Notes: generated by a model not told the origin, from the letters alone. A stretch of DNA of 17,491 nucleotides from a virus (IMGVR_UViG_3300029741_000087:1-17491); one strand, 5' to 3'; shown: positions 3,594-17,491, numbered from the stretch's first letter. Made by a program: numbers and translations.

Positions 3594-6500
3594 ATGGCGA
3601 CGTTACGTGAACTGATTATCAAAATTTCGGCAAATTCACAGTCATTCCAGTCGGAGATCCAGCGGGCGTCCCGTATGGGCAGTGAATATTACCGGACCCT
3701 GCAGAATGGCGGACGTCAGGCTGCTGCGGCAGCCAGGGAGCAGTGCCGGGCTCTGGCTGAGCTGAACAGCCAGTTGACGGAAATCCGCGCTTCGGCTGTC
3801 GGAATGACCAGTGCGTTTGCCGGTGCCTTTGCCACCGGACACCTGATTTCGCTGGCAGATGAATGGAGCTCCGTGAATGCCCGTCTGAAACAGGCGTCGC
3901 AGTCATCGGATGAATTTGCGTTATCACAGAAAGTGCTGATGGACATCAGCCAGCGGACAGGCACCGCATTTTCGGATAATGCGACCCTGTTTGCCCGTTC
4001 GGCTGCCTCGATGCGTGAATATGGTTACAGTGCTGATGATGTGCTGAAGGTGACGGAGGCCATTTCGACAGGGCTGAAAATTTCCGGTGCCAGTGCGGCA
4101 GAGGCGGGTTCGGTGATCACCCAGTTCAGCCAGGCGCTGGCACAGGGGGTGTTGCGCGGCGAGGAATTTAATTCGGTCAATGAAAGTGGGGACCGGATCA
4201 TTCGCGCACTGGCTGCAGGCATGGGCGTGGCCCGTAAGGATCTGAAGGCGATGGCGGACGATGGTCAACTGACGGCGGATAAAGTCGTTCCCGCGTTAAT
4301 CAGCCAGCTGGGGATATTGCGTGATGAATATGCAGCCATGCCGGAAACGGTGTCTGACGGGATCACGAAGGTGGAAAACGCCTTTATGGCCTGGGTGGGC
4401 GGCGCGAATGAGGCCAGCGGAGCGACGAAAACGCTCTCCGGCGCACTGAACGGTGTGGCCGGAAATATTGATACCGTGGCAACAGCTGCGGGTGTGCTGG
4501 TTGCTGTCGGGGTGGCCCGGTACTTTGGTAATCTGGCTTCCGGAGCGATGTCTGCCACGGCAGGACTTGTGACCGCTGCACGTAATGAAGTGGCACTGGC
4601 TGAGGCCCAGTTAAGGGGAACGCAGATTGCCACGGCGCGGGCAAGGGCAGCCGTGTACCGGGCTCAGCAGGCTGTGGCGGCAGCCCGCGGGACTGAGATG
4701 CAGATTGCGGCAGAGGCCCGTCTGGCGGTCACACAGGAACGCCTGAACAGAAATATTGCTGCCAGAACCGCCGCCCAGAATGCGCTGAACAGTACAACGG
4801 CGGTGGGCTCACGTCTGATGAGCGGTGCGCTGGGACTGGTTGGAGGCGTACCCGGACTGGTGATGCTGGGAGCTGCCGCATGGTACACGCTGTACCAGAA
4901 TCAGGAGCAGGCCAGGGAGTCTGCGCGCCAGTATGCACTGACGATTGATGAAATCGCGCATAAAACGCCATCAATGTCTCTGCCTGAAGCCTCAGATAAT
5001 GAAGGGCGAACACGGGAGGCGCTGACAGAGCAGAACCGGCTGATTGATGAGCAGGCCAGCCGGGTGAAATCCCTGCAGGAAAAAATCGCCGGGTATCAGT
5101 ATGTGCTGGCTAATCCGGGCTGGACGACCGGTAACGGCTTCATGATAAACCATCTGACATCGGTGAAAACTGTAACGGAAGAGCTTGCTCAGGCAACAGA
5201 GCAGTTTGCTGTTGAGCAGTCCCGTCTGGCACAGATGCAGGAAAAAGCGCAGTCCATTCAGGATGTGCTTGCCGGACTGGAAGAGCGCCGTGTTGTGTTA
5301 ATTCGTCAGCAGGCAGCAGAGCAGAATAAAGCGTATCAGTCACTGCTGGTCATGAACGGTCAGCATACGGAATTCAACCGCCTGCTGGGGCTGGGTAATG
5401 AACTGCTGCAACAGCGTCAGGGACTGGCGAGTGTACCGCTGCGACTGCCACAGGCCACTCTGGATGATAAACAGCAGAGCGCCCTGAATAACACAGAGCG
5501 TCAACTGGCCCTGTCCCGGCTGAAAGGGGAAGAAAAAGAGCGTGCCCGGCTGGGGTATGCGGCGGATGACCTTGGTCTGGTGGGGGATACGTATCAGGAG
5601 GCGAGGCAGCGTTACATCCGTAATTCGATGGAAGCCTGGCGCAATAATGAGGCGAATAAACCCAAATCCCGGGCCGGAAAATCAGGGGCGGAAAAAGCGG
5701 AAGACAGTTTTTCCCGTCTGCTGAAGCAGCAGAAGGAACAACTGGCACTGGCCGGGAAGAATACAGAACTGGCAAAACTGAAATACCAGACCTCGCAGGG
5801 CGAGCTGAAAACCCTGACGGAGATACAGAAGCAGGAGCTGCTGCGCAATGCTGCCCTGATTGACCAGAAGAAAATCCGGGAGCAGTTACGGGCCCGGGAG
5901 GAGACCCTGAAAAATGATAATGCAGACGCAAGGGCATCAAATGACGCTGAGCTGCTGGGGTACGGGCAGGGTGAGCGGGTCCGTGAACGGATGCGGGAGC
6001 TGCAGCAGATTCGTGACGGCTACCGCCAGAAGGATGCGGACCTGCAGTCTCAGTATCAGACAGGGGATATCAGTGAGGATTTTTACAGACAGGCGCTGGC
6101 GCAGAATGCGCAGTATCTGAGTGAACGCCTTAAAGACCAGGAGGCTTTTTATGCCGAATCGGATGCGCAGCGTGCTGACTGGCAGAAAGGGCTGCAGGAA
6201 GGGCTAAGTAACTGGGTGGACAGCGCATCAGATTACGCTTCACAGGCAGCACAGCTTGCGACAGACGGTATCTCAGGGATGGTGAATAACATCACGGAGA
6301 TGCTGAACGGAAATAAAGTGGAATGGCGCAGCTGGGCTGCATCAATCCTGCAGGAAATATCAAAAGTTCTTATGAATGCGGCCATTGTCAACGGCATTAA
6401 GATGGCGGCAAACAGTATGTCCGGTGCAGGAGGATTTTTCGGCAGTATAGGCAACTGGCTGGGTGGCGCGGTGGCAAATGCAAAAGGCGGCGTTTATACC

Positions 6501-6836
6501 TCGGCAAACCTGAGTGCATACAGTAACAGTATTGTGGACACGCCCACGTACTTTGCCTTTGCAAAAGGGGCAGGGCTGATGGGGGAGGCCGGACCTGAAG
6601 CCATCATGCCCCTGACCCGGGCAGCGGATGGTTCACTCGGCGTGCGTGCGGTGGGCAGTATGAACGGCAGTGCGGGTCTGGTGTATTCCCCGGTGTACCA
6701 CATCGCCATTCAGAATGACGGCGCTAACGGGCAGATAGGGCCGGAAGCGGCGGGCACCCTTGTGCAACTGATTGACCAGCGGGTACAGGCGGTGATGTTA
6801 TCCATGCGTCGTGACGGAGGAATGCTGAGTGGATGA
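3594..6836 (+). CDS. H: Tail tape measure protein
   Basis: 1080 aa, Ala/Gln-rich, predicted coiled-coil-like, with a hydrophobic Gly-rich segment. C-terminus (QNDGANGQIGPEAAG...RRDGGMLSG) resembles the lambda H C-terminus as I recall it (NNDGTNGQIGPAAL...RDGGLFSG). Shine-Dalgarno AGGAGAAAGG upstream. Confidence 0.9.
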   Translation: MATLRELIIKISANSQSFQSEIQRASRMGSEYYRTLQNGGRQAAAAAREQCRALAELNSQLTEIRASAVGMTSAFAGAFATGHLISLADEWSSVNARLKQASQSSDEFALSQKVLMDISQRTGTAFSDNATLFARSAASMREYGYSADDVLKVTEAISTGLKISGASAAEAGSVITQFSQALAQGVLRGEEFNSVNESGDRIIRALAAGMGVARKDLKAMADDGQLTADKVVPALISQLGILRDEYAAMPETVSDGITKVENAFMAWVGGANEASGATKTLSGALNGVAGNIDTVATAAGVLVAVGVARYFGNLASGAMSATAGLVTAARNEVALAEAQLRGTQIATARARAAVYRAQQAVAAARGTEMQIAAEARLAVTQERLNRNIAARTAAQNALNSTTAVGSRLMSGALGLVGGVPGLVMLGAAAWYTLYQNQEQARESARQYALTIDEIAHKTPSMSLPEASDNEGRTREALTEQNRLIDEQASRVKSLQEKIAGYQYVLANPGWTTGNGFMINHLTSVKTVTEELAQATEQFAVEQSRLAQMQEKAQSIQDVLAGLEERRVVLIRQQAAEQNKAYQSLLVMNGQHTEFNRLLGLGNELLQQRQGLASVPLRLPQATLDDKQQSALNNTERQLALSRLKGEEKERARLGYAADDLGLVGDTYQEARQRYIRNSMEAWRNNEANKPKSRAGKSGAEKAEDSFSRLLKQQKEQLALAGKNTELAKLKYQTSQGELKTLTEIQKQELLRNAALIDQKKIREQLRAREETLKNDNADARASNDAELLGYGQGERVRERMRELQQIRDGYRQKDADLQSQYQTGDISEDFYRQALAQNAQYLSERLKDQEAFYAESDAQRADWQKGLQEGLSNWVDSASDYASQAAQLATDGISGMVNNITEMLNGNKVEWRSWAASILQEISKVLMNAAIVNGIKMAANSMSGAGGFFGSIGNWLGGAVANAKGGVYTSANLSAYSNSIVDTPTYFAFAKGAGLMGEAGPEAIMPLTRAADGSLGVRAVGSMNGSAGLVYSPVYHIAIQNDGANGQIGPEAAGTLVQLIDQRVQAVMLSMRRDGGMLSG

Positions 6837-7170
6837 GATTAAGACTCTTCACTGGTGTCCCCGGGAAGGGATGCAGGTGACGGAGAAACCGTCGGTGATG
6901 ACGGTGAAGTTTGGCGACGGTTATCAGCAGCGTCGTCCGGCAGGACTGAATGCGCAACTGAAGACCTTTCAGGTGGTTTTTCGGGTGACAACGGATGCTG
7001 AGCGGGAGGCACTGTCCGCGTTTCTGTCATGGCATGGTGGTTACCGGGCTTTTTTGTGGAAGCCCCCGAAACATAACCGGACGGTCAGGGTGGTGTGCCG
7101 GGAGTGGAGTATTACGGATAACGCCCGGTACAGTGATTTCAGTTGCACGATAGAGCAGGTAGTTAGATGA
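6829..7170 (+). CDS. M: Minor tail protein M
   Basis: 113 aa; KFGDGYQQRRPAGLNAQLKTF...HGGYRAFLWKPP...EQVV aligns closely with lambda M (RFGDGYSQRAPAGLNANLKTY...HGGWKSFLWTPP...EQVV) from memory. GTG start overlaps the H stop. Confidence 0.9.
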   Translation: MDEIKTLHWCPREGMQVTEKPSVMTVKFGDGYQQRRPAGLNAQLKTFQVVFRVTTDAEREALSAFLSWHGGYRAFLWKPPKHNRTVRVVCREWSITDNARYSDFSCTIEQVVR

Positions 7171-7368: not shown

Positions 7369-8523
7369 ATGAAAAAAATGACAGTGGCACTTTCTGCTGT
7401 AGCAGTGGCAGTGATGTTTGCTGCGGGGGCGCAGGCAGCAGAAGTTTATAATAAAGATGGTAATAAACTGGATCTTTACGGGCGTGCAACCGCTCTGCAT
7501 TACTTCTCGGATGATAAAGGTAATGACGGAGACCAGACTTATGCTCGTCTCGGCTTTAAAGGCGAAACGCAGATTAATGATCAACTGACCGGATTTGGTC
7601 AGTGGGAATACCAGTTCTCTGGTAATAAAACGGAATCTGAAGGTTCCGCGGGAAATAAAACCCGTCTGGCATTTGCAGGTCTGAGATTTGCAGATGTTGG
7701 TACCATTGATTACGGACGTAACTATGGTATTGCTTACGATGTCGGATCATATACTGACGTACTGCCTGAGTTTGGTGGTGATGGCTGGACGCAGACCGAT
7801 AACTTTATGACGGCCCGAACTTCCGGTGTCCTGACTTACCGTAATACAGACTTCTTCGGACTGGTTGATGGTCTGAATTTTGCGGCGCAGTATCAGGGCA
7901 AAAATGAGCGTGATGACCTTCAGAAGGCTAATGGCGACGGGTATGGTTTCTCGGCCAGCTATGAGTTTGATGGTTTTGGTTTTGTCGCTGCGTATACCAA
8001 GTCAGATCGTACTGATAAGCAGGTTCAGGGGTTGAATGGTACTGCAGATGTTCTTGATCCTGCATCAGGTAAAAAGGTTGGAGAAAAAGCAGTTGACTCA
8101 GGTAGTGTGGCAAAAGGTAAACATGCTGAATTCTGGGGAACTGGTCTTAAATATGATGCCAATAACCTGTATCTGGCAGCAGTGTATTCTGAAACCCAGA
8201 ATATGACGACCTTTGGTGATCAAGGTGTTGCGGATAAAGCTCAGAATATCGAAGCCGTTGTTCAGTATCAGTTTGATTTTGGTCTGCGCCCGTCCCTTGC
8301 CTACCTTCAGTCCCGCGGACAGGATGTTATGGTTGGTGGTGTGAACCATGGCGATCAGGATCTGGTTAAATATATTGATGTCGGTGCGACTTATTACTTT
8401 AACAAGAATATGTCCACCTATGTTGATTATAAAATTAACCTGATTGATGAAAGTGAATTTACCCGGAAAGCCGGTGTTGCGACAGATAATATCGTTGCTG
8501 TGGGTATGACTTATCAGTTCTGA
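7369..8523 (+). CDS. General outer-membrane porin, OmpC/OmpF/PhoE family (phage moron)
   Basis: 384 aa. Cleavable signal peptide [23 protein letters not shown] followed by [15 protein letters not shown]; C-terminal ...VAVGMTYQF with terminal Phe, typical of beta-barrel porins. AAGGA Shine-Dalgarno before the ATG. The gene and its flanks are markedly AT-richer than neighbouring tail genes. Confidence 0.9.
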
Positions 8524-8601: not shown

Positions 8602-8695
8602 GTCACTGCGATCAGCAATTGCCATCTGGCATGTGCTGATTTAACTTTCTGTTATTACCTTTATTGGTTTTATTTTAAATTGGACTTTTATTGTT

Positions 8696-8720
8696 CGGGG
8701 CGCGTCTGCGCCCCTTTTTT
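8696..8720 (+). terminator. Intrinsic terminator closing the porin moron, abutting the L start
   Basis: ggggcgc (8697-8703), loop gtct, gcgcccc (8708-8714), then tttttt at 8715-8720. Confidence 0.7.
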
Positions 8721-8732
8721 ATGGGCGGATAT

Positions 8733-9431
8733 ATGCAGGATATTCACGAAGAAAGCCTGAACGAGTCGGTTAAGTCAGAGCAGTCACCGCGGGTGGTGCT
8801 CTGGGAAATCGACCTGACGGTGCAGGGCGGTGAGCGGTATTTTTTCTGCAATGAGCTGAATGAAAAAGGGGAGCCGGTGACCTGGCAGGGGCGTGAATAT
8901 CAGGCGTACCCGATTGAGGGCAGCGGCTTTGAGATGAACGGAAAGGGCAGCAGTGCCCGCCCGTCGCTGACGGTGTCCAATCTTTTCGGCCTTGTCACCG
9001 GGATGGCGGAGGATTTGCAGAGCCTGGTGGGTGCCACGGTGGTCCGCCGCCGGGTGTATGCGCGTTTTCTTGATGCGGTGAACTTTGTGGCGGGGAATCC
9101 GGAGGCAGACCCGGAGCAGGAGCTGACGGACCGGTGGGTGGTGGAGCAGTTATCAGCGCTGACGGCCATGACGGCCTCGTTTGTGCTGGCGACACCGACG
9201 GAGACGGACGGGGCGCTGTTTCCCGGTCGCATCATGCTGGCGAACACCTGTATGTGGGATTACCGGGGCGATGAGTGCGGGTATAACGGTCCGGCAGTGG
9301 CGGATGAGTTCGACAACCCTACCACGGATATCCGGAAGGACAGATGCAGTAAATGCATGCGCGGGTGTGAGATGCGCGGCATGGCGGTCAATTTTGGCGG
9401 TTTCCTTTCCATCAATAAACTTTCGCAGTAA
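8733..9431 (+). CDS. L: Minor tail protein L
   Basis: Starting at ATG 8733 the protein MQDIHEESLNE...VVLWEIDL...GERYFFCNE...GEPVTWQGREYQ...FGGFLSINKLSQ is near-colinear with lambda L as I recall it (MQDIRQETLNE...FGGFLSINKLSQ). The track's 8691 start is an upstream extension through the terminator. Confidence 0.9.
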   Translation: MQDIHEESLNESVKSEQSPRVVLWEIDLTVQGGERYFFCNELNEKGEPVTWQGREYQAYPIEGSGFEMNGKGSSARPSLTVSNLFGLVTGMAEDLQSLVGATVVRRRVYARFLDAVNFVAGNPEADPEQELTDRWVVEQLSALTAMTASFVLATPTETDGALFPGRIMLANTCMWDYRGDECGYNGPAVADEFDNPTTDIRKDRCSKCMRGCEMRGMAVNFGGFLSINKLSQ

Positions 9432-9441
9432 ATCCCGGTTT

Positions 9442-10185
9442 ATGACACAGACTGAATCAGCGATTCTGGTGCATGCCCGGCGGTGTGCGCCAGCGGAGTC
9501 GTGCGGCTTCGTGATAAGCACCCCGGAGGGCGAACGGTACCAGCCCTGCGTGAATATCTCCGCAGAGCCGGAGGCGTATTTTCGTATTACACCGGAAGAC
9601 TGGCTGCAGGCACAGATGCAGGGGGAGATTGTGGCGCTGGTCCACAGTCATCCCGGTGGTCTGCCCTGGCTGAGCGAGGCGGACCGGCGGCTGCAGATAA
9701 AGAGTGCCCTGCCCTGGTGGCTGGTCTGCCGGGGTGAAATTCACCGGTTCCGCTGTGTGCCGCACCTGACCGGACGGCGCTTTGAACACGGTGTGACGGA
9801 CTGTTACACCCTGTTCCGGGATGCATACCATCTGGCGGGGATAACGCTGCCGGATTTTGTGCGTGAGGATGACTGGTGGCGCAACGGTCAGAACCTGTAC
9901 CTGGACAACCTGGCAGACAACGGCTTTTACCGGGTGTCTCCGTCCTGTGCACAGGCGGGCGATATCCTGCTGTGCTGCTTTGGTTCATCGGTGCCGAATC
10001 ATGCCGCCATTTACTGTGGCAACGGTGAACTGCTTCACCATATACCTGAACAACTGAGTAAACGGGAGAGGTATTCAGAGAAATGGCAACGACGAACGCA
10101 TTCTGTCTGGCGTCACCGCCACTGGTCCGCATCTGCCTTCACGGGGATTTACAACGATTTGGTCGCCGCATCAGCCTGTATGTGA
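9442..10185 (+). CDS. K: Tail assembly protein K (JAMM/MPN plus NlpC/P60 domains)
   Basis: Starts MTQTESAIL as in lambda K. JAMM motif HSHPGGLPWLSEAD (HxHx7Sx2D) and an NlpC/P60-like Cys/His pair (DCYTL, NHAAIY). The track's 9181 start overlaps L and is rejected. Confidence 0.9.
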   Translation: MTQTESAILVHARRCAPAESCGFVISTPEGERYQPCVNISAEPEAYFRITPEDWLQAQMQGEIVALVHSHPGGLPWLSEADRRLQIKSALPWWLVCRGEIHRFRCVPHLTGRRFEHGVTDCYTLFRDAYHLAGITLPDFVREDDWWRNGQNLYLDNLADNGFYRVSPSCAQAGDILLCCFGSSVPNHAAIYCGNGELLHHIPEQLSKRERYSEKWQRRTHSVWRHRHWSASAFTGIYNDLVAASACM

Positions 10186-10763
10186 ACACGGCAGCGGAGG
10201 CCATCCGTGCCCTGTCGCTGCAGGTGCCGGGATTCCGCGGTCAGATGAACGAAGGCTGGTATCAGATACGTATTGCCGGTGAGGATACCGCACCGGAGGC
10301 GGTGTACGCCCGTCTTCACGAACAACTGGGTGAGGGAGCGGTCATCCACATTGTGCCGCGACTGGCCGGAGCCGGGGGAAATGGTGTTTTTCAGGTGGTG
10401 CTGGGGGTTGCAGCGATTGTCGGGTCATTTTTCACTGGTGGTGCAACACTGGCGGCATGGGGCGCAGCCCTGAGTGCCGGAGGGCTGACTGCCACCACGA
10501 TGCTGTTCTCACTGGGTGCCAGCATGATACTGGGTGGTGTGGCTCAGATGCTGGCCCCGAAGGCAAAGACGCCGGAGTATAAAAGTACGGATAACGGTAA
10601 ACAGAACACGTATTTTTCGTCACTGGACAACATGATTGCCCAGGGTAACCCGATGCCGGTGCCTTACGGTGAAATGCTGGTTGGTTCACGACGGATATCC
10701 CAGGATATCAGCACCCGTGATGAGGGCGGAGACGGGAAAGTGGTGGTTATCGGACGGGGATAA
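10083..10763 (+). CDS. I: Tail assembly protein I
   Basis: MATTNAFCLASPPLVRICLHGDLQRFGRRI...NGKQNTYFSSLDNM...VVVIGRG aligns with lambda I (MAATHTLPLASPGMARICLYGDLQRFGRRI...VVVIGR) from memory. Overlaps the 3' end of K. Confidence 0.9.
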   Translation: MATTNAFCLASPPLVRICLHGDLQRFGRRISLYVNTAAEAIRALSLQVPGFRGQMNEGWYQIRIAGEDTAPEAVYARLHEQLGEGAVIHIVPRLAGAGGNGVFQVVLGVAAIVGSFFTGGATLAAWGAALSAGGLTATTMLFSLGASMILGGVAQMLAPKAKTPEYKSTDNGKQNTYFSSLDNMIAQGNPMPVPYGEMLVGSRRISQDISTRDEGGDGKVVVIGRG

Positions 10764-11478: not shown

Positions 11479-14400
11479 GTGGGTAAAGGGGGCGGCAAGG
11501 GGCACACACCGCGTGAGGCGAAGGACAATCTCAAATCCACGCAGATGATGAGCGTGATTGATGCCATTGGTGAGGGACCGGTGGAAGGTCCGGTGAAGGG
11601 ACTGCAGAGTATTCTGGTGAACAAAACCCCGCTGACGGACACGGACGGTAATCCCGTGATACACGGTGTGACCGCCGTCTGGCGTGCCGGGGAGCAGGAG
11701 CAGACACCGCCGGAAGGCTTTGAGTCCTCCGGGGCAGAAACCGCACTGGGCGTGGAGGTGACGAAGGCAAAGCCGGTGACGCGCACCATCACGTCAGCGA
11801 ACATTGACCGTCTGCGGGTCACCTTCGGGGTACAGTCACTGGTGGAGACCACCTCAAAGGGTGACCGTAATCCCTCTTCTGTCCGCCTGCTGATTCAGCT
11901 TGAGCGTAACGGGCACTGGGTGACGGAGAAGGATGTCACCATTAACGGCAAGACCACCTCGCAGTACCTGACGTCGGTGATTCTGAATAATCTCCCTGAG
12001 CGCCCCTTTAACATCCGGATGGTCAGGGTGACGGCGGACAGCACCACGGACCAGCTGCAGAACAGAACGCTGTGGTCGTCATACACCGAAATCATCGATG
12101 TGAAACAGTGCTACCCGAACACGGCGATTGTGGGGCTGCAGGTGGATGCGGAGCAGTTTGGTGGCCAGCAGCTGACGGTGAACTACCATATCCGTGGTCG
12201 CATCATTCAGGTGCCGTCAAACTATGACCCGGAAAAACGCACCTACAGCGGTATCTGGGACGGGAGTCTGAAACCGGCATACAGCAATAACCCGGCCTGG
12301 TGCCTGTGGGACATGCTGACCCACCCGCGCTACGGCATGGGAAAACGCCTGGGGGCCCCGGACGTGGACAAGTGGGCACTGTATGCCATCGGGCAGTACT
12401 GTGACCAGACGGTCCCGGATGGTTTCGGGGGAACAGAGCCGCGGATGACTTTCAATGCGTACCTGTCACAGCAGCGTAAGGTGTGGGATGTCCTGGGGGA
12501 TTTCTGCTCGGCGATGCGCTGTATGCCGGTATGGAACGGCCAGACGCTGACGTTCGTTCAGGACCGTCCGTCGGATGTGGTGTGGCCGTACACCAACAGC
12601 GATGTGGTGGTGGATGATAACGGCGTGGGGTTCCGCTACAGCTTCAGTGCCCTGAAGGACCGGCACACGGCGGTGGAGGTGAATTACACCGACCCGCAGA
12701 ACGGCTGGCAGACCTCCACGGAACTGGTGGAAGACCCGGACGCCATCCTGCGCTACGGGCGCAATCTGCTGAAGATGGATGCGTTCGGCTGTACCAGCCG
12801 CGGTCAGGCCCACCGTGCCGGACTGTGGGTGATAAAGACAGAACTGCTGGAAACGCAGACGGTGGATTTCACGCTCGGGTCACAGGGGCTGCGGCACACG
12901 CCCGGTGACATCATTGAAATCTGTGATAACGACTACGCCGGGACCCTGACCGGTGGACGCATCCTGTCCATCGATGCCGCCAGCCGTACCCTGACGCTGG
13001 ACCGTGAGGTGATACTGCCGGAAGCAGGGACATCGACGGTGAACCTGATTAACGGCAGCGGTAAGCCGGTGCGCGTGGACATCACTGCACACCCCGCCCC
13101 TGACCGGATACAGGTCAGCGTCCTGCCTGATGGCGTGGAGACATACGGTGTGTGGGGACTCTCCCTGCCGTCACTGCGTCGTCGCCTGTTCCGCTGTGTT
13201 TCCATCCGGGAAAACACGGACGGCACCTTTGCCATCACGGCAGTGCAGCACGTACCGGAAAAAGAAGCCATCGTGGATAACGGGGCCACCTTTGAGCCGC
13301 TGTCCGGTTCACTGAACAGCGTCATCCCGCCGGCAGTGCAGCACCTCACGGTGGAGGTGAGTGCCTCAGACGGCCAGTATCTGGCGCTGGCGAAATGGGA
13401 CACGCCGCGGGTGGTGAAGGGCGTGCGCTTCAGTCTGCGCCTGACCAGTGGCAGTGGTGAAAACAGCCGCCTGGTGACCAGCGCTATCACTGCCGACACG
13501 GAGCACCGTTTCAGTGGCCTGCCGCCCGGGGAATACACCCTGACGGTCAGGGCGATAAACAGCTACGGCCAGCAGGGCGAACCTGCCACCACCACGTTCC
13601 GGATTAACGCACCGGCAGCACCGGCCAGCATTGAACTGACGCCGGGGTATTATCAGATAACGGCGGTCCCGCATCTTACGGTGTATGACCCGACGGTACA
13701 ATTTGAGTTCTGGTTTTCGGAGGCAAAAATCGCAGACACATCTCAGGTGGAAACCTCTGCCCGTTATCTGGGGACAGGCAGCCAGTGGAGTGTCTCCGGC
13801 CCGCACATTAAGCCGGGGAAGGATTTCTGGTTTTATGTGCGCAGCGTCAACCTGGTGGGGAAATCTGCGTTTGTGGAAGCCAGTGGCCGGGCCAGCAATG
13901 ATGCGGAAGGGTATCTGGGGCTGTTTCGGGAAAAGATAGGAAAACTGCATCTGGCACAGGGGATGTGGGAGCTGATTGATAACAGCCAGCTTGATGATGA
14001 GATGGCGGAGATGAAGACCACCATCACAGAAACCCGCAATGAAATCACGCAGACGGTCAGTAAAACCCTGGAAGACCAGAGCGCCACCATACAGCAGATA
14101 CAGCGGGTGCAGACAGACACAAATAACGACCTGGCTGCGCTGTACATGCTGAAGGTGCAGAAAACAAAAAACGGCATTCCGTATGTTGCCGGTATTGGTG
14201 CGGGGATTGAGGATGCTGATGGCCAGCCCCTGAGCAATATACTGCTGCAGGCGGACCGTATCGCGATGATTAACCCGGAGAACGGCAACACCACGCCGCT
14301 GTTTGTGGCGCAGGGGAATCAGCTGTTCATGAACGATGTGTTCCTGAAGCGACTGTTTGCGGTGAGCATCACCTCGTCCGGCAATCCCCCGACGTTCTCC

Positions 14401-14946
14401 CTGACGCCGGAGGGCAGGCTGACGGCCCGCAATGCGGACATCAGCGGACATATCAGTGCGAACTCGGGCACGCTGAATAATGTCGTGATAGCGGAGAACT
14501 GTACGATAAATGGCACGCTGAAAGCGGAGAACATTATTGGTGATCTTGTGAAATGTGCAGGGGTGGCTTTTCCGGTGGATGGTAGTTACCTTGCGAACGG
14601 TACACGAACGCTGACGGTGTATGACGATCACAGCTTTGACCGGCAGATTATAATCCCGCCGATAATCTATGTCGGGTCAAAACAGGAATCCCGCACCAGT
14701 AATGACATCTGGACAGAGTGCTTCCTGCATGTTGATCAGAACGGACGCCGGATTTATTCAGGCAGGTCAGTGACAGAGCCGGGAATTTTCAGCGGGATCA
14801 TCGATATGCCAGCCGGTCATGGTCATATCACCCTGAGTTTTACCGTAAGTTCACGACGTCAGAACGGGAGTTTTGGCAGTTCACGTATCAGTAACCTTCA
14901 GGCGATAGTGGTGAAGAAAAACAGCGCGGGGATCAGTATCCGCTGA
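11479..14946 (+). CDS. J: Host specificity / central tail fibre protein J
   Basis: 1155 aa from a GTG start. N-terminus [22 protein letters not shown] and long internal stretches (for example [35 protein letters not shown]) are near-identical to lambda J as I recall it. The C-terminal ~150 aa are more divergent. Confidence 0.95.
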
Positions 14947-15144
14947 ACATCGCGCCCCGGGATTGCCGGAAGGAGACAAAAACCGTACAGTATGCGCGGG
15001 TGCCTTTGGCTGATGGCCGGAGGGAACACCTGAAGGCCGGATGTGAAAAGGCCCCGGACAAACATTCATGTTTAACCCGAGGCCTGACCATTCATCCTAA
15101 GCAAGTGAAAGGTTAGCGCCTCTCCGTAAAAGGAGCAAGCGTTT

Positions 15145-15285
15145 ATGTCGCAAAAACCGTTAAAAACCACCGTGATTTGTATCACGGTAGTGCTCATTAT
15201 CTGGATCACCCACACTTCACTGTGCGAGTTCCGGTTCCGGATAGCGGGCGCGGAGATTGCGGCGTTCTTACAGTGTAAGCAGTAA
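15145..15285 (+). CDS. Hok/Gef-family type I toxin (small membrane peptide); not in the ORF track because it is shorter than 60 aa
   Basis: 46 aa: MSQKPLKTTVICITVVLIIWITHTSLCEFRFRIAGAEIAAFLQCKQ. One transmembrane stretch followed by SLCEFRFR...EIAAF, matching the Hok signature (Hok of plasmid R1: ...[23 protein letters not shown]) from memory. AGGAG at 15131-15135, 9 nt before the ATG. Confidence 0.7.
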   Translation: MSQKPLKTTVICITVVLIIWITHTSLCEFRFRIAGAEIAAFLQCKQ

Positions 15286-15293
15286 GAAACCGT

Positions 15294-15316
15294 GGCGGGG
15301 GAGAATATCCCCCGCC
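15294..15316 (+). other. Perfect 8-bp GC stem-loop immediately after the hok-like stop
   Basis: ggcggggg (15294-15301) / cccccgcc (15309-15316) with a 7-nt loop and no U-tract; could be an mRNA 3' structural element. Confidence 0.4.
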
Positions 15317-15380
15317 GACCGGTTGCTGAGGGTGGTCAGCCGGATGGCACCGTTTTAACACCAACAAACCACAAATATTA

Positions 15381-15416
15381 CCGCAGGCCGGGAAACCGGT
15401 CCTGCGGTTTTTTTAT
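15381..15416 (+). terminator. Intrinsic terminator between the hok-like gene and stf
   Basis: ccgcaggccgg / ccggtcctgcgg stem with one mismatch, GAAA tetraloop, then T-run 15408-15416. Confidence 0.7.
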
Positions 15417-15427
15417 GGGGGAAATCC

Positions 15428-17065
15428 ATGACAGTCAGAATATCGGGTGTGCTGAAGGATGGTACGGGAAAAGCGGTACCGGGATGCACGATAGAGCTGA
15501 AAGCGCGCCGCACAACGGAGACGGTGATTGTCACCACGGTGGCGTATGGTCAGCCGGGGGAAACCGGCAGTTACAGTATGGATGTTGAGCCGGGGTTGTA
15601 CCGGGTGACGCTGAACACGGAAGGGTACGCGCCGTCATATGTGGGTGACATTCTGGTGAAGGCGGATTCTGCACCGGGAACGCTGAATAAATATCTGATG
15701 GACCTGGAAGACGCACAGTATTACCCGAAAGCCCTTGCAGAGCTGGAAGCGGTGGCAGCGGAAATCCTGAAACGTGCGGAAGCGTCAGCGGCGAGTGCGG
15801 AGGAGGCAAAAAAACGGGCAGAGAATGCGCGGGGACCGAAGGGGGATAAGGGGGACACCGGGCCGCAGGGTATTCCCGGGCCAAAAGGCGATACCGGCGA
15901 GCGGGGGCCAAAGGGTGAGCGTGGTGAGACAGGACCACAGGGGCTTCAGGGTGTGAAAGGTGAACGGGGAGAGAAGGGCGAAAAAGGCGAGCCGGGAGGA
16001 CCGGATGCGACGACGGCACAGAAGGGAATTGTGCAGTTAAGCAGCGCAACGGACAGTGATGATGAAACGAAGGCAGCCACCCCGAAAGCGGTGAAAGCGG
16101 CAATGGACAAAGCGGACGGATGCCTGGAGAAAGCGAAAAACGGTGACGATATCCCGGATAAGGTGAAGTTTCTGAACACCGTGGGAGCAGCCAGAGTATA
16201 CGGGCGGGACATTCATACGGAGACCGGTGAATGGACCACGAGTGAGTTTGTGGCCTGGCTGAAAGAAAAGGGGGCATTTGACCAGCCTTACTGGATGATG
16301 AAGGCATCACTGCCTGCGGCAATGAATAAAGTCATCACAGATGTCGGACCGGGAAAACTCAATCTGGGTGGCTGTGTCATTGAGGTGATGGGAACGTATG
16401 AGGCTGCCATAGTCCGGGTCACCATTGGCGAATACGGTGCAACGGGGTTTATTAATGGCACGGTCTGTACCTGTACGGTTTACGGCGACACACGGTATTT
16501 CCACTGGCGGGTGGATTACAGCACAAAAAACAAACCGGATACGGTCAGCCAGCGGGATGCCAGCACGACGCAGAAAGGTGTGGTGCAGTTAAGCAGTGAT
16601 ACTGGCAGTAATGACGAAACAAAGGCAGCCACGCCGAAGGCCGTGAAGGCGGCAATGGATGTGGCAAATGAAGCGAAAACAAAGGCAGAAGAGGCTGCAG
16701 CAGGAGGTGGTGTTCCCGGTCCGAAAGGGGAGAAAGGCGACCCCGGTCCCAGAGGTGAGCGTGGAGAAACCGGGCCGATGGGGCCGCCCGGGGCATCAGA
16801 CGGGAAGAGCCGGGTTGTGGGTATCAGGCTGGGTAATAAACAGACTTATGCGCCGCAAACAGACAGCACTACATGGGCAGTGGATTTGGATATTGGTGCG
16901 ATGATTACGGGGATTGGCGGTTACAACGACGGAAACAAAACCCTTATTGACAGGGTATCTTACAGGCCGCTTCAGGTGACATTTGATGGTTCTCAGTGGC
17001 GTACAGTCAGCGTGGGTGAGTATGTGTCGTCAGGAGCTTCGGGGTTTGAGTATTTTCCATTATAA
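15428..17065 (+). CDS. stf: Side tail fibre protein (Stf-like) with collagen-like Gly-X-Y tracts
   Basis: 545 aa. N-terminus MTVRISGVLKDGTGKAVPGCTIELKARR matches lambda Stf (MAVKISGVLKDGTGKPVQNCTIQLKARR) from memory. Two copies of the fibre repeat QKG(I/V)VQLSS...ETKAATPKAVKAAMD. Gly-X-Y runs at aa 136-191 and 427-455. Confidence 0.9.
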   Translation: MTVRISGVLKDGTGKAVPGCTIELKARRTTETVIVTTVAYGQPGETGSYSMDVEPGLYRVTLNTEGYAPSYVGDILVKADSAPGTLNKYLMDLEDAQYYPKALAELEAVAAEILKRAEASAASAEEAKKRAENARGPKGDKGDTGPQGIPGPKGDTGERGPKGERGETGPQGLQGVKGERGEKGEKGEPGGPDATTAQKGIVQLSSATDSDDETKAATPKAVKAAMDKADGCLEKAKNGDDIPDKVKFLNTVGAARVYGRDIHTETGEWTTSEFVAWLKEKGAFDQPYWMMKASLPAAMNKVITDVGPGKLNLGGCVIEVMGTYEAAIVRVTIGEYGATGFINGTVCTCTVYGDTRYFHWRVDYSTKNKPDTVSQRDASTTQKGVVQLSSDTGSNDETKAATPKAVKAAMDVANEAKTKAEEAAAGGGVPGPKGEKGDPGPRGERGETGPMGPPGASDGKSRVVGIRLGNKQTYAPQTDSTTWAVDLDIGAMITGIGGYNDGNKTLIDRVSYRPLQVTFDGSQWRTVSVGEYVSSGASGFEYFPL

Positions 17066-17106
17066 AGCGCATCATCTTTCAGACATGTAACCGGGAGGAC
17101 TTACAG

Positions 17107-17491
17107 ATGCACATAAAGAATTTCAGACAATACACGCCGGAAAATCCGGATGTGCCGGGTGCGATGTACCTGAAATCAGAGGATGGTCAGGACTGGTATG
17201 AGTGTCAGTCGTTATTTTCAGCAGAGACGCTGAAGGTGGTTTATAATAGTGCCAGGGTCATTACCGGCATCAGCAGGGTGGCATCAGTTCTGTGGCCAGT
17301 GGGCCAGAGTGTGGTGGAGGTGGCGGATACGGAAGAAAACCGCAAAGCTGACATCTCGGGGCGCTGGGGTTTTGACGGGGAGAAAATCACGGACCTGCTG
17401 ACCGCGGAGAAAGCGCGCGTGATGAAGGGAGATGAAATCAACGCCTGGCGTAATGCGATGGAAGCGGCGAACTACACGTTTGAGCACAATG
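17107..17491 (+). CDS. tfa: Tail fibre assembly protein (Tfa family), 3' end outside the window
   Basis: GGGAGGA Shine-Dalgarno then ATG at 17107. Motifs DWYE...VVEVAD...RKADISGRWGFDGEKI resemble Tfa-family chaperones (NWYE...VVEVPD...RRADDSGKWMF) as I recall them. Open to the end of the window. Confidence 0.7.
   Translation, partial: MHIKNFRQYTPENPDVPGAMYLKSEDGQDWYECQSLFSAETLKVVYNSARVITGISRVASVLWPVGQSVVEVADTEENRKADISGRWGFDGEKITDLLTAEKARVMKGDEINAWRNAMEAANYTFEHN

Follow-up and report, generated by a model that had tools for sequence, protein, structure and literature searches.

A putative EPcl-type collagen-like side tail fibre gene with a short second collagen tract in a lambda-like Escherichia coli prophage

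Introduction

The EPcl class of collagen-containing phage fibre proteins (EHEC prophage collagen-like proteins A–D), borne by lambdoid prophages of E. coli and Shigella, has been known since 2012, together with its domain vocabulary (PfN, Col, Pf2 and PfC) and a polymorphism in the length of its Col domains, which was reported to run in multiples of three residues (PMC3368898). Here we describe what is very probably a member of this class, an stf-like side tail fibre gene of 545 aa (positions 15428–17065, + strand), present as an intact open reading frame (ORF) in the viral DNA IMGVR_UViG_3300029741_000087:1-17491; the whole of this stretch, 17 491 nt in length, is referred to below as the window. 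The EPclA protein was found to be trimeric, its genuine collagen triple helix being seen by circular dichroism and melting at 42 °C, and its PfC acts as a trimerization module that renucleates this helix (PMC3368898). In the same work a coiled coil was predicted for the last ∼30 residues of PfN (Ghosh 2012, PMC3368898), and the PCoil domain was noted to be often missing from EPclC. For EPclB, the homologue ECs1228 of prophage Sp5 was located at the tail end by immuno-electron microscopy (immuno-EM) and shown to be needed for plaques (PMC5155283).

With these proteins the gene in the window shares a PfN head, two uninterrupted (Gly-X-Y)n Col domains (19 and 10 triplets) flanked by phage fibre domains, Pf2 sequence between them, and a prophage side-fibre locus. 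It differs in having a second Pf2 copy and a 150-aa knob resembling Mu S' between the collagen tracts, an architecture that is not described in the text of PMC3368898, and in having no long PCoil and a tip that is only distantly PfC-like; moreover, the second Col domains tabulated for EPcl proteins measure 75–135 aa (PMC3368898), as against 30 aa here. At the DNA level, nt 1–444 of the gene are 89 % identical to EPclC (ORF-401 of P-EibA), whilst Pf2 copy 1, the helix that follows Pf2 and the start of the second Col domain are near-identical to those of 933W, whose L0121 is an EPclB protein like Z1483 and ECs1228 of Sp5. Judged by sequence, the closest kin therefore appear to be EPclC in the head and EPclB across the junction of Pf2, linker and second Col domain. 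What is new is the length allele, and the Mu S'-like knob and second Pf2, which go beyond the text of the 2012 study.

Three further systems bear on this gene. The Stf of Ur-lambda (PDB 9e7m/9mgh) has been seen by cryo-EM to wrap the tail tip with its collars, and its fibres speed adsorption; its shaft is a coiled coil and its T4 gp37-like tip binds OmpC, no collagen tract being described there (PMC12617516). The window gene has in common with it the collar, Pf2 repeats, the position after J and a following tfa gene, but its shaft is made of collagen and knob, and its tip is unrelated to gp37. In the S and S' fibres of Mu (PDB 8ju3, 5yvq), as in the window, Pf2 precedes a globular domain, which is shared with the window protein at 41 % identity (150 aa); Mu, however, is a myovirus whose N-terminal anchor to the baseplate is of another kind, and when aligned, neither 8ju3 nor 5yvq shows a collagen tract or a further Pf2 beyond the domain. 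Finally, the lateral fibre gp61 of phi24B (bioRxiv 10.64898/2026.04.10.717836) also has a collagen-like shaft, but with a podovirus N-terminal anchor, a long coiled coil and a much longer collagen region (residues 243–567). The EPclB protein L0121 of 933W (645 aa, nearly the length of gp61) is taken here to be a close relative of gp61.

Results

In order to establish the identity of the gene we compared its product with profile and structure databases. The 545-aa ORF matched phrog_366 (tail fiber protein) at 4e-111. Its N-terminal domain (aa 1–91; 15428–15700, +) aligned with the lambda Stf collar (PDB 9e7m_Ta, 1.9e-27), and a PF08400 (Phage_tail_N) match enclosing this domain extended over aa 1–134 (1.4e-39), bearing out the original prediction, made by a model from the sequence alone, of an Stf-like fibre with a lambda-type N-terminus. 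The genes stand in the order J, hok, stf and tfa, with the gene for the tip protein J upstream of the fibre gene and one for tail fibre assembly downstream of it. The closest full-length genes were found in chromosomes of Shiga toxin-producing E. coli (STEC), at 98.9 % identity, where they are annotated as prophage tail fibre and stand in the same gene order; these relatives occur in 70 of 5426 complete genomes at ≥ 80 % coverage. The fibre gene of phage 1720a-02 is 97.5 % identical, again with conserved gene order, and the window itself, which contains lambda-like tail genes upstream, is the tail module of a lambda-like prophage. We consider it very likely, with a probability of roughly 0.85, that the ORF product is an Stf homologue of the EPcl class and serves a lambda-like E. 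coli prophage as its side tail fibre, with internal repeats that drive variation in length and cassette content. By its homology, the collar domain is predicted to fasten the fibre to the tail tip.

Behind the collar lies an Ala/Glu-rich segment (aa 92–135, AQYYPKALAELEAVAAEILKRAEASAASAEEAKKRAENAR; 15701–15832, +), which presumably forms a short, helical, trimeric stalk. The PfN match covers the first 134 aa and the first collagen tract already begins at aa 136, so that here, as often in EPclC, there is no long PCoil domain, that is, no low-complexity coiled coil of ∼88–116 aa between PfN and Col. This first tract, Col1 (aa 136–192, 57 aa; 15833–16003, +), consists of 19 uninterrupted Gly-X-Y triplets and ends in GEPGGP; the second, Col2 (aa 428–457, 30 aa; 16709–16798, +), consists of 10. 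Both had been foreseen from the sequence alone with boundaries a few bases off (15833–16000 and 16706–16792), and the domain search that was then proposed returned two stretches each of Collagen (PF01391, E-value 3.7e-13) and Phage_fiber_2 (PF03406, E-value 2.4e-35). In 2000 shuffles of the residues the longest Gly-X-Y run was six triplets, as against the 19 observed. In both tracts Gly recurs at every third position without interruption, and charged residues and Pro are plentiful, at 35 % and 14 %, respectively, in Col1 and at 27 % and 23 % in Col2. At the standard rise of 0.286 nm per residue, triple helices of ∼16 nm and ∼8.6 nm would be expected for Col1 and Col2, respectively, if, by analogy with EPclA, the protein trimerizes and folds in this way. 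On the same basis, Col2 of the sister alleles would extend over 17–62 nm. Col2 is preceded by a 16-aa linker (VANEAKTKAEEAAAGG; 16661–16708, +) that is presumably helical; the equivalent region of phi24B has been described as a short coiled coil that interrupts the collagen shaft (bioRxiv 10.64898/2026.04.10.717836). On the opposite strand, the GGN codons give rise to a Pro-rich ORF (15531–16322, −; 263 aa, 22 % Pro), which had been called spurious at the outset; we agree, since it lies wholly within a well-supported sense gene, and antisense ORFs were accordingly rejected as genes.

We next compared the window fibre with its 120 closest homologues, as its internal repeats had been proposed to be a substrate for recombinational length variation. 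Such variation is real amongst the relatives, and it resides in Col2, which ranged from 10 to 72 triplets (10, 20, 24, 26, 31, 36 ... 60, 72), the window allele being the shortest. Alleles that share the tip of the window protein (...FEYFPL) had 20 triplets and one other tip type had 26, whilst alleles with the ...LFQRIS tip covered 24–72, with peaks at 36 (19 proteins), 48 (32 proteins) and 60 (19 proteins). These peaks correspond to 1–5 copies of a 12-triplet unit, GPK GDT GAP GAK GEK GAT GAT GPQ GAK GDK GDP GPQ; in the FORC_069 allele the unit is visible as a 108-nt tandem repeat of 2.4 copies with 96 % matches. Neither the window gene nor the STEC1590 allele yielded a tandem repeat in TRF. 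Many of the Col2 length classes were found in complete chromosomes. The number of Pf2 repeats, in contrast, did not vary, being two in every homologue that covers the region (two proteins, P0005 and P0010, escaped the regular expression used for Pf2 solely through a P-to-L change), so that at this distance the part of the idea concerning the number of repeat modules did not hold. Col1 had 19 triplets in 119 of the 120 homologues. The exception, P0005 (E. coli, on a 5.2-Mb contig), carries a 40-aa deletion (GIPGP|DATT) that cuts Col1 from 19 to ∼5 triplets, and as 40 aa is not a multiple of three residues its Col1 ends differently. A further allele, in E. coli 2018-166 (NZ_CP075632.1), measures 1727 nt as against 1728 nt elsewhere and is annotated as two coding sequences; a frameshift has probably occurred in this copy of the fibre gene.

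Compared with the alleles of STEC1590 and phage 1720a-02, Col2 in the window is shorter by exactly 30 aa, which are missing from between GPKGEKGDPG repeats. The missing 90 nt fall between two imperfect copies of a 29-nt repeat (GGnCCGAAAGGnGAGAAAGGCGACCCCGG), which in STEC1590 (locus L001) start at 5291 and 5381, 90 nt apart; the deletion is in frame, and the junction is a single hybrid copy of the repeat (16718–16746, +) that combines the T of the upstream copy with the G of the downstream one. From this sequence we read the window allele as a 90-nt in-frame deletion that arose by recombination or slippage between Col2 repeats. Alternatively, the short Col2 may be an artefact, in which the assembler jumped between the 29-nt copies of a real gene with 20 triplets. 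The exact protein and its junction are found nowhere else, as a 44-nt junction-specific pattern was absent from IMG/VR and JGI metagenome contigs and a look-up of contigs with the exact protein returned nothing; the full-length E. coli matches listed are all of 1728 nt, bar the one frameshifted allele; and the gene often breaks short-read contigs, the cluster to which the window fibre belongs (2580 members) being composed mostly of partial proteins from short contigs that end within the gene. Indeed, it is at the collagen and Pf2 repeats that short-read assemblies routinely come apart. Nevertheless, the longest exact word common to both 29-nt copies in the closest allele is 17 nt, below the k-mers usual in assembly, for which reason a mis-join is not favoured; the deletion is exactly in frame and removes 10 triplets; and complete genomes offer many genuine cases of Col length polymorphism, which had been reported earlier (PMC3368898). 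Taken together, we hold an assembly origin to be unlikely.

Between the collagen tracts lie the two Pf2 copies and the knob. As DNA repeat units, the copies span 16003–16107 (+) and 16555–16659 (+), the Pfam stretch of copy 1 being aa 195–235 (nt 16010–16132). They are identical at 84 of 105 positions without gaps (80 %, the value first proposed), whilst 100 codon shuffles gave no 105-nt match better than 56/105. The repeats themselves were thus correctly recognized, but the 555-nt offset implied by their original coordinates was not, the true register being 552 nt, since a single additional codon is present near the beginning of copy 1. In a second alignment the copies agree at 83 of 104 positions, and many of the 21 differences are synonymous; the copies are thus old members of a widespread repeat family rather than the products of a recent duplication. 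The central globular domain, or knob (aa 224–373, 150 aa; 16097–16546, +), corresponds to residues 174–325 of S' in the Mu G(−) fibre, with a domain E-value of 7e-31 and 62 of 150 residues identical (41 %) to PDB 8ju3, and Pf2 copy 1 aligns in addition with residues 111–173 of Mu S. The knob also matched phrog_21834, phrog_26292 and phrog_6722; a word-indexed homologue search with the knob alone returned 12 proteins only, and in other fibres (P0151, P0152) the knob is placed directly before a different tip domain. Going by these alignments, the two Pf2 copies appear to bracket an acquired knob domain.

A different account of the same repeats, and the one originally given, is that collagen and Pf2 were duplicated together as a unit whose copy number varies by recombination between the copies. 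The 80 % identity of the Pf2 copies fits this, as do a 76-nt stretch shared by Col1 and Col2 at 72 % and the existence of relatives with one and with two Pf2 copies. The order is, however, mirrored (Col1–Pf2 ... Pf2–Col2), and the Pf2 copies are spaced 552 nt apart as against 840 nt for the best match between Col1 and Col2, which together largely refute a unit duplication. Furthermore, TRF found no tandem array, the intervening segment is a foreign Mu S'-like domain, two Pf2 copies are present in all 120 close alleles with Col1 fixed in 119, and the difference between one and two copies removes the knob and one Pf2 without any collagen. The probability that remains for this account is very small. 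As a duplicated module the original reading is therefore wrong in form, whilst its idea of recombination is right in substance.

That idea finds its counterpart at greater distance, where, in contrast to the 120 closest homologues, fibres with one and with two Pf2 copies do coexist. The L0121 protein of 933W has a single, hybrid Pf2 and no knob, and orf-401 of P-EibA likewise has one Pf2 and no knob. In 933W the hybrid follows copy 1 of the window gene at 20 of 20 informative sites and then copy 2 and the downstream linker at 14 of 14; a single switch, inside the 11-mer GCGGCAATGGA, divides an upstream part with 102/104 identical positions from a downstream part (linker and start of Col2) with 70/71. 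This 11-mer occurs at 16097 and 16649 and bounds a 552-nt cassette (16108–16659, +) comprising the knob and Pf2 copy 2. As the Pf2 of 933W is a copy 1/copy 2 hybrid, the two gene types differ by exactly this segment, which is absent from fibres of the 933W type. The single-Pf2 junction is the common state: > 150 phage records contain it, as do the majority of the 487 E. coli genomes with a match. The cassette is found in just three phage records, and two Pf2 copies with a knob are present in the podovirus fibres P13771 ORF65 and phiSTEC1589-Stx1c gp54. Amongst E. coli alleles, similarity to the window gene breaks at or inside the collagen and Pf2 segments (query positions 444, 524, 577 and 1314/1329), a pattern that suggests a mosaic fibre gene with repeats at its seams.

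The C-terminal tip (88 aa; 16799–17062, +) is a distant PfC-like domain, aligning with the PfC of 933W at 32 % over 59 aa (BLASTP, 3e-5). With a profile of the tip, a match (0.0023) was obtained to the C-terminal end of the 'Short tail fiber' structure PDB 9cuy, whilst a single-sequence PDB search returned nothing significant, and its resemblance to the Mu S/S' tip is weak and non-significant. The family is narrow: exhaustive HMMER searching of 1.84 billion proteins gave nine representative clusters, too shallow a set for a useful profile, and a word-indexed homologue search with the tip alone gave five proteins only. By analogy with PfC, the tip is presumed to trimerize and to bind the receptor.

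Collagen-like proteins of Gram-positive pathogens are adhesins, and on that model the ORF product could be no part of the virion at all but could serve the lysogen, in the manner of the Scl proteins of streptococci, as a prophage-borne adhesin on its surface or as a virulence factor, with virulence-type cargo genes (hok and the porin gene) nearby. We reject this role as scarcely credible given the lambda Stf collar domain and the setting between J and the tfa chaperone gene; nor could a secretion signal be made out in the N-terminal sequence (MTVRISGVLKDG...) on inspection by eye, no signal-peptide predictor having been used, and the EPclB homologue has been seen on the tail by immuno-EM (PMC5155283).

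Upstream of the fibre gene, the window encodes the tape measure protein (3594–6836), M (6829–7170), L (8691–9431), a K-like protein (9181–10185, given as the ORF span because its start codon is uncertain), I (10083–10763) and J (11479–14946, with GpJ Pfam domains). Downstream, the tail fibre assembly (chaperone) gene (17107–17491, +; phrog_136, 6.8e-33) is truncated by the end of the window; its product is 98 % identical to a DUF4376 protein of STEC1590, which itself has a weak Caudo_TAP match. The gene next after tfa in STEC1590 (L001, 6847–8091) encodes a protein that carries a YadA C-terminal domain, and it occupies the position held in P-EibA by eibA, encoding an immunoglobulin-binding protein (L006, 3918 onward), and in STEC1590 a gene for an S6 peptidase lies further downstream; the window stops before this point. 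Between M and L there is a gene for a 384-aa OmpC-like porin (7369–8523, +; Porin_1, 5.9e-144). This M–porin–L arrangement was found in 92 of 5426 complete E. coli genomes, where the gene is annotated 'porin OmpC', and a near match was found in no phage record. As lambda Stf binds OmpC, receptor use or superinfection may be influenced where a prophage carries an OmpC variant of its own next to a side-fibre module.

Between J and stf, the window encodes a 46-aa toxin of the Hok/Gef family (15145–15285, +; PF01848, 6e-11). The hok arrangement is kept in STEC1590 and 1720a-02, whilst lom occupies the position of hok in the lambda-like relatives P-EibA and FORC_069. Across 14900–17491, Rfam gave no match at the gathering threshold, no search dedicated to a Sok-like antisense RNA being made, and no sigma-70-like promoter was found. 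A GC-rich hairpin (15294–15316) lies immediately downstream of the hok stop codon, and a strong hairpin followed by seven T residues (ACCGCAGGCCGGGAAACCGGTCCTGCGG TTTTTTT; 15380–15414, +) ends 13 nt upstream of the stf start codon. With such a structure preceding it, expression of stf would require read-through, for example by late-gene antitermination.

Discussion

If the gene indeed encodes an EPcl-class side fibre, a working model of the particle can be drawn from its domain order. Three chains would trimerize, their N-terminal collars clamping the fibre onto the tail tip; a short helical stalk would then lead into the collagen triple helix of Col1, some 16 nm long, and from there through the first Pf2 to the Mu S'-like knob, the second Pf2, a short helix and the 8.6-nm triple helix of Col2. 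The small PfC-like tip would trimerize, nucleate the triple helix and bind the host surface, its folding aided by the Tfa-type chaperone encoded downstream. Unequal recombination or slippage between the Col2 repeats would alter the number of triplets and hence the reach of the tip, whilst recombination in the conserved Pf2 repeats could add or remove the 552-nt knob cassette and could also join fibre segments from siphovirus, podovirus and myovirus lineages. A bolder reading, which we put forward only tentatively, makes Col2 a repeat-driven 'molecular ruler' that sets the distance from knob to tip and is matched to the depth of O-antigen or capsule, with Pf2 as dedicated splice points for cassettes. 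In that reading, the 108-nt unit would be a variable-number tandem repeat in 1–5 copies, giving a reach of ∼9–62 nm across alleles, and the window would hold an extreme short-reach allele; this too we regard as speculative.

A number of observations weigh against the assignment of the gene to an EPcl-class side fibre shaped by its repeats. The 10-triplet allele has been seen once, and its exact protein is on record only from this contig. A triple helix of 10 triplets would be short, and its stability would depend on the flanking trimerizing domains. The AlphaFold2 monomer model of aa 190–428, built from a nine-sequence alignment, had a mean pLDDT of 38 and is unusable. The PfC profile PF06820 scored 15.3 bits (E-value 0.026) on the tip, below its gathering score of 25. 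Lastly, the cassette difference may reflect either a deletion between repeats or an insertion via crossovers, in either direction.

As this class of proteins and its variation in length have both been in the literature since 2012, these findings leave current understanding unchanged. They do carry a practical consequence in that, because repeats break and may mis-join short-read assemblies, fibre length alleles taken from draft or metagenome data need checking at the level of reads. More broadly, the temperate phages by which Shiga toxin and other virulence genes are moved owe faster adsorption, and part of their host range, to side fibres. The locus described here separates parts that are fixed (collar, Col1 and knob) from those that are plastic (the length of Col2, the type of tip and the presence of the knob), and such a map is useful both for reading prophage diversity and for engineering fibres.

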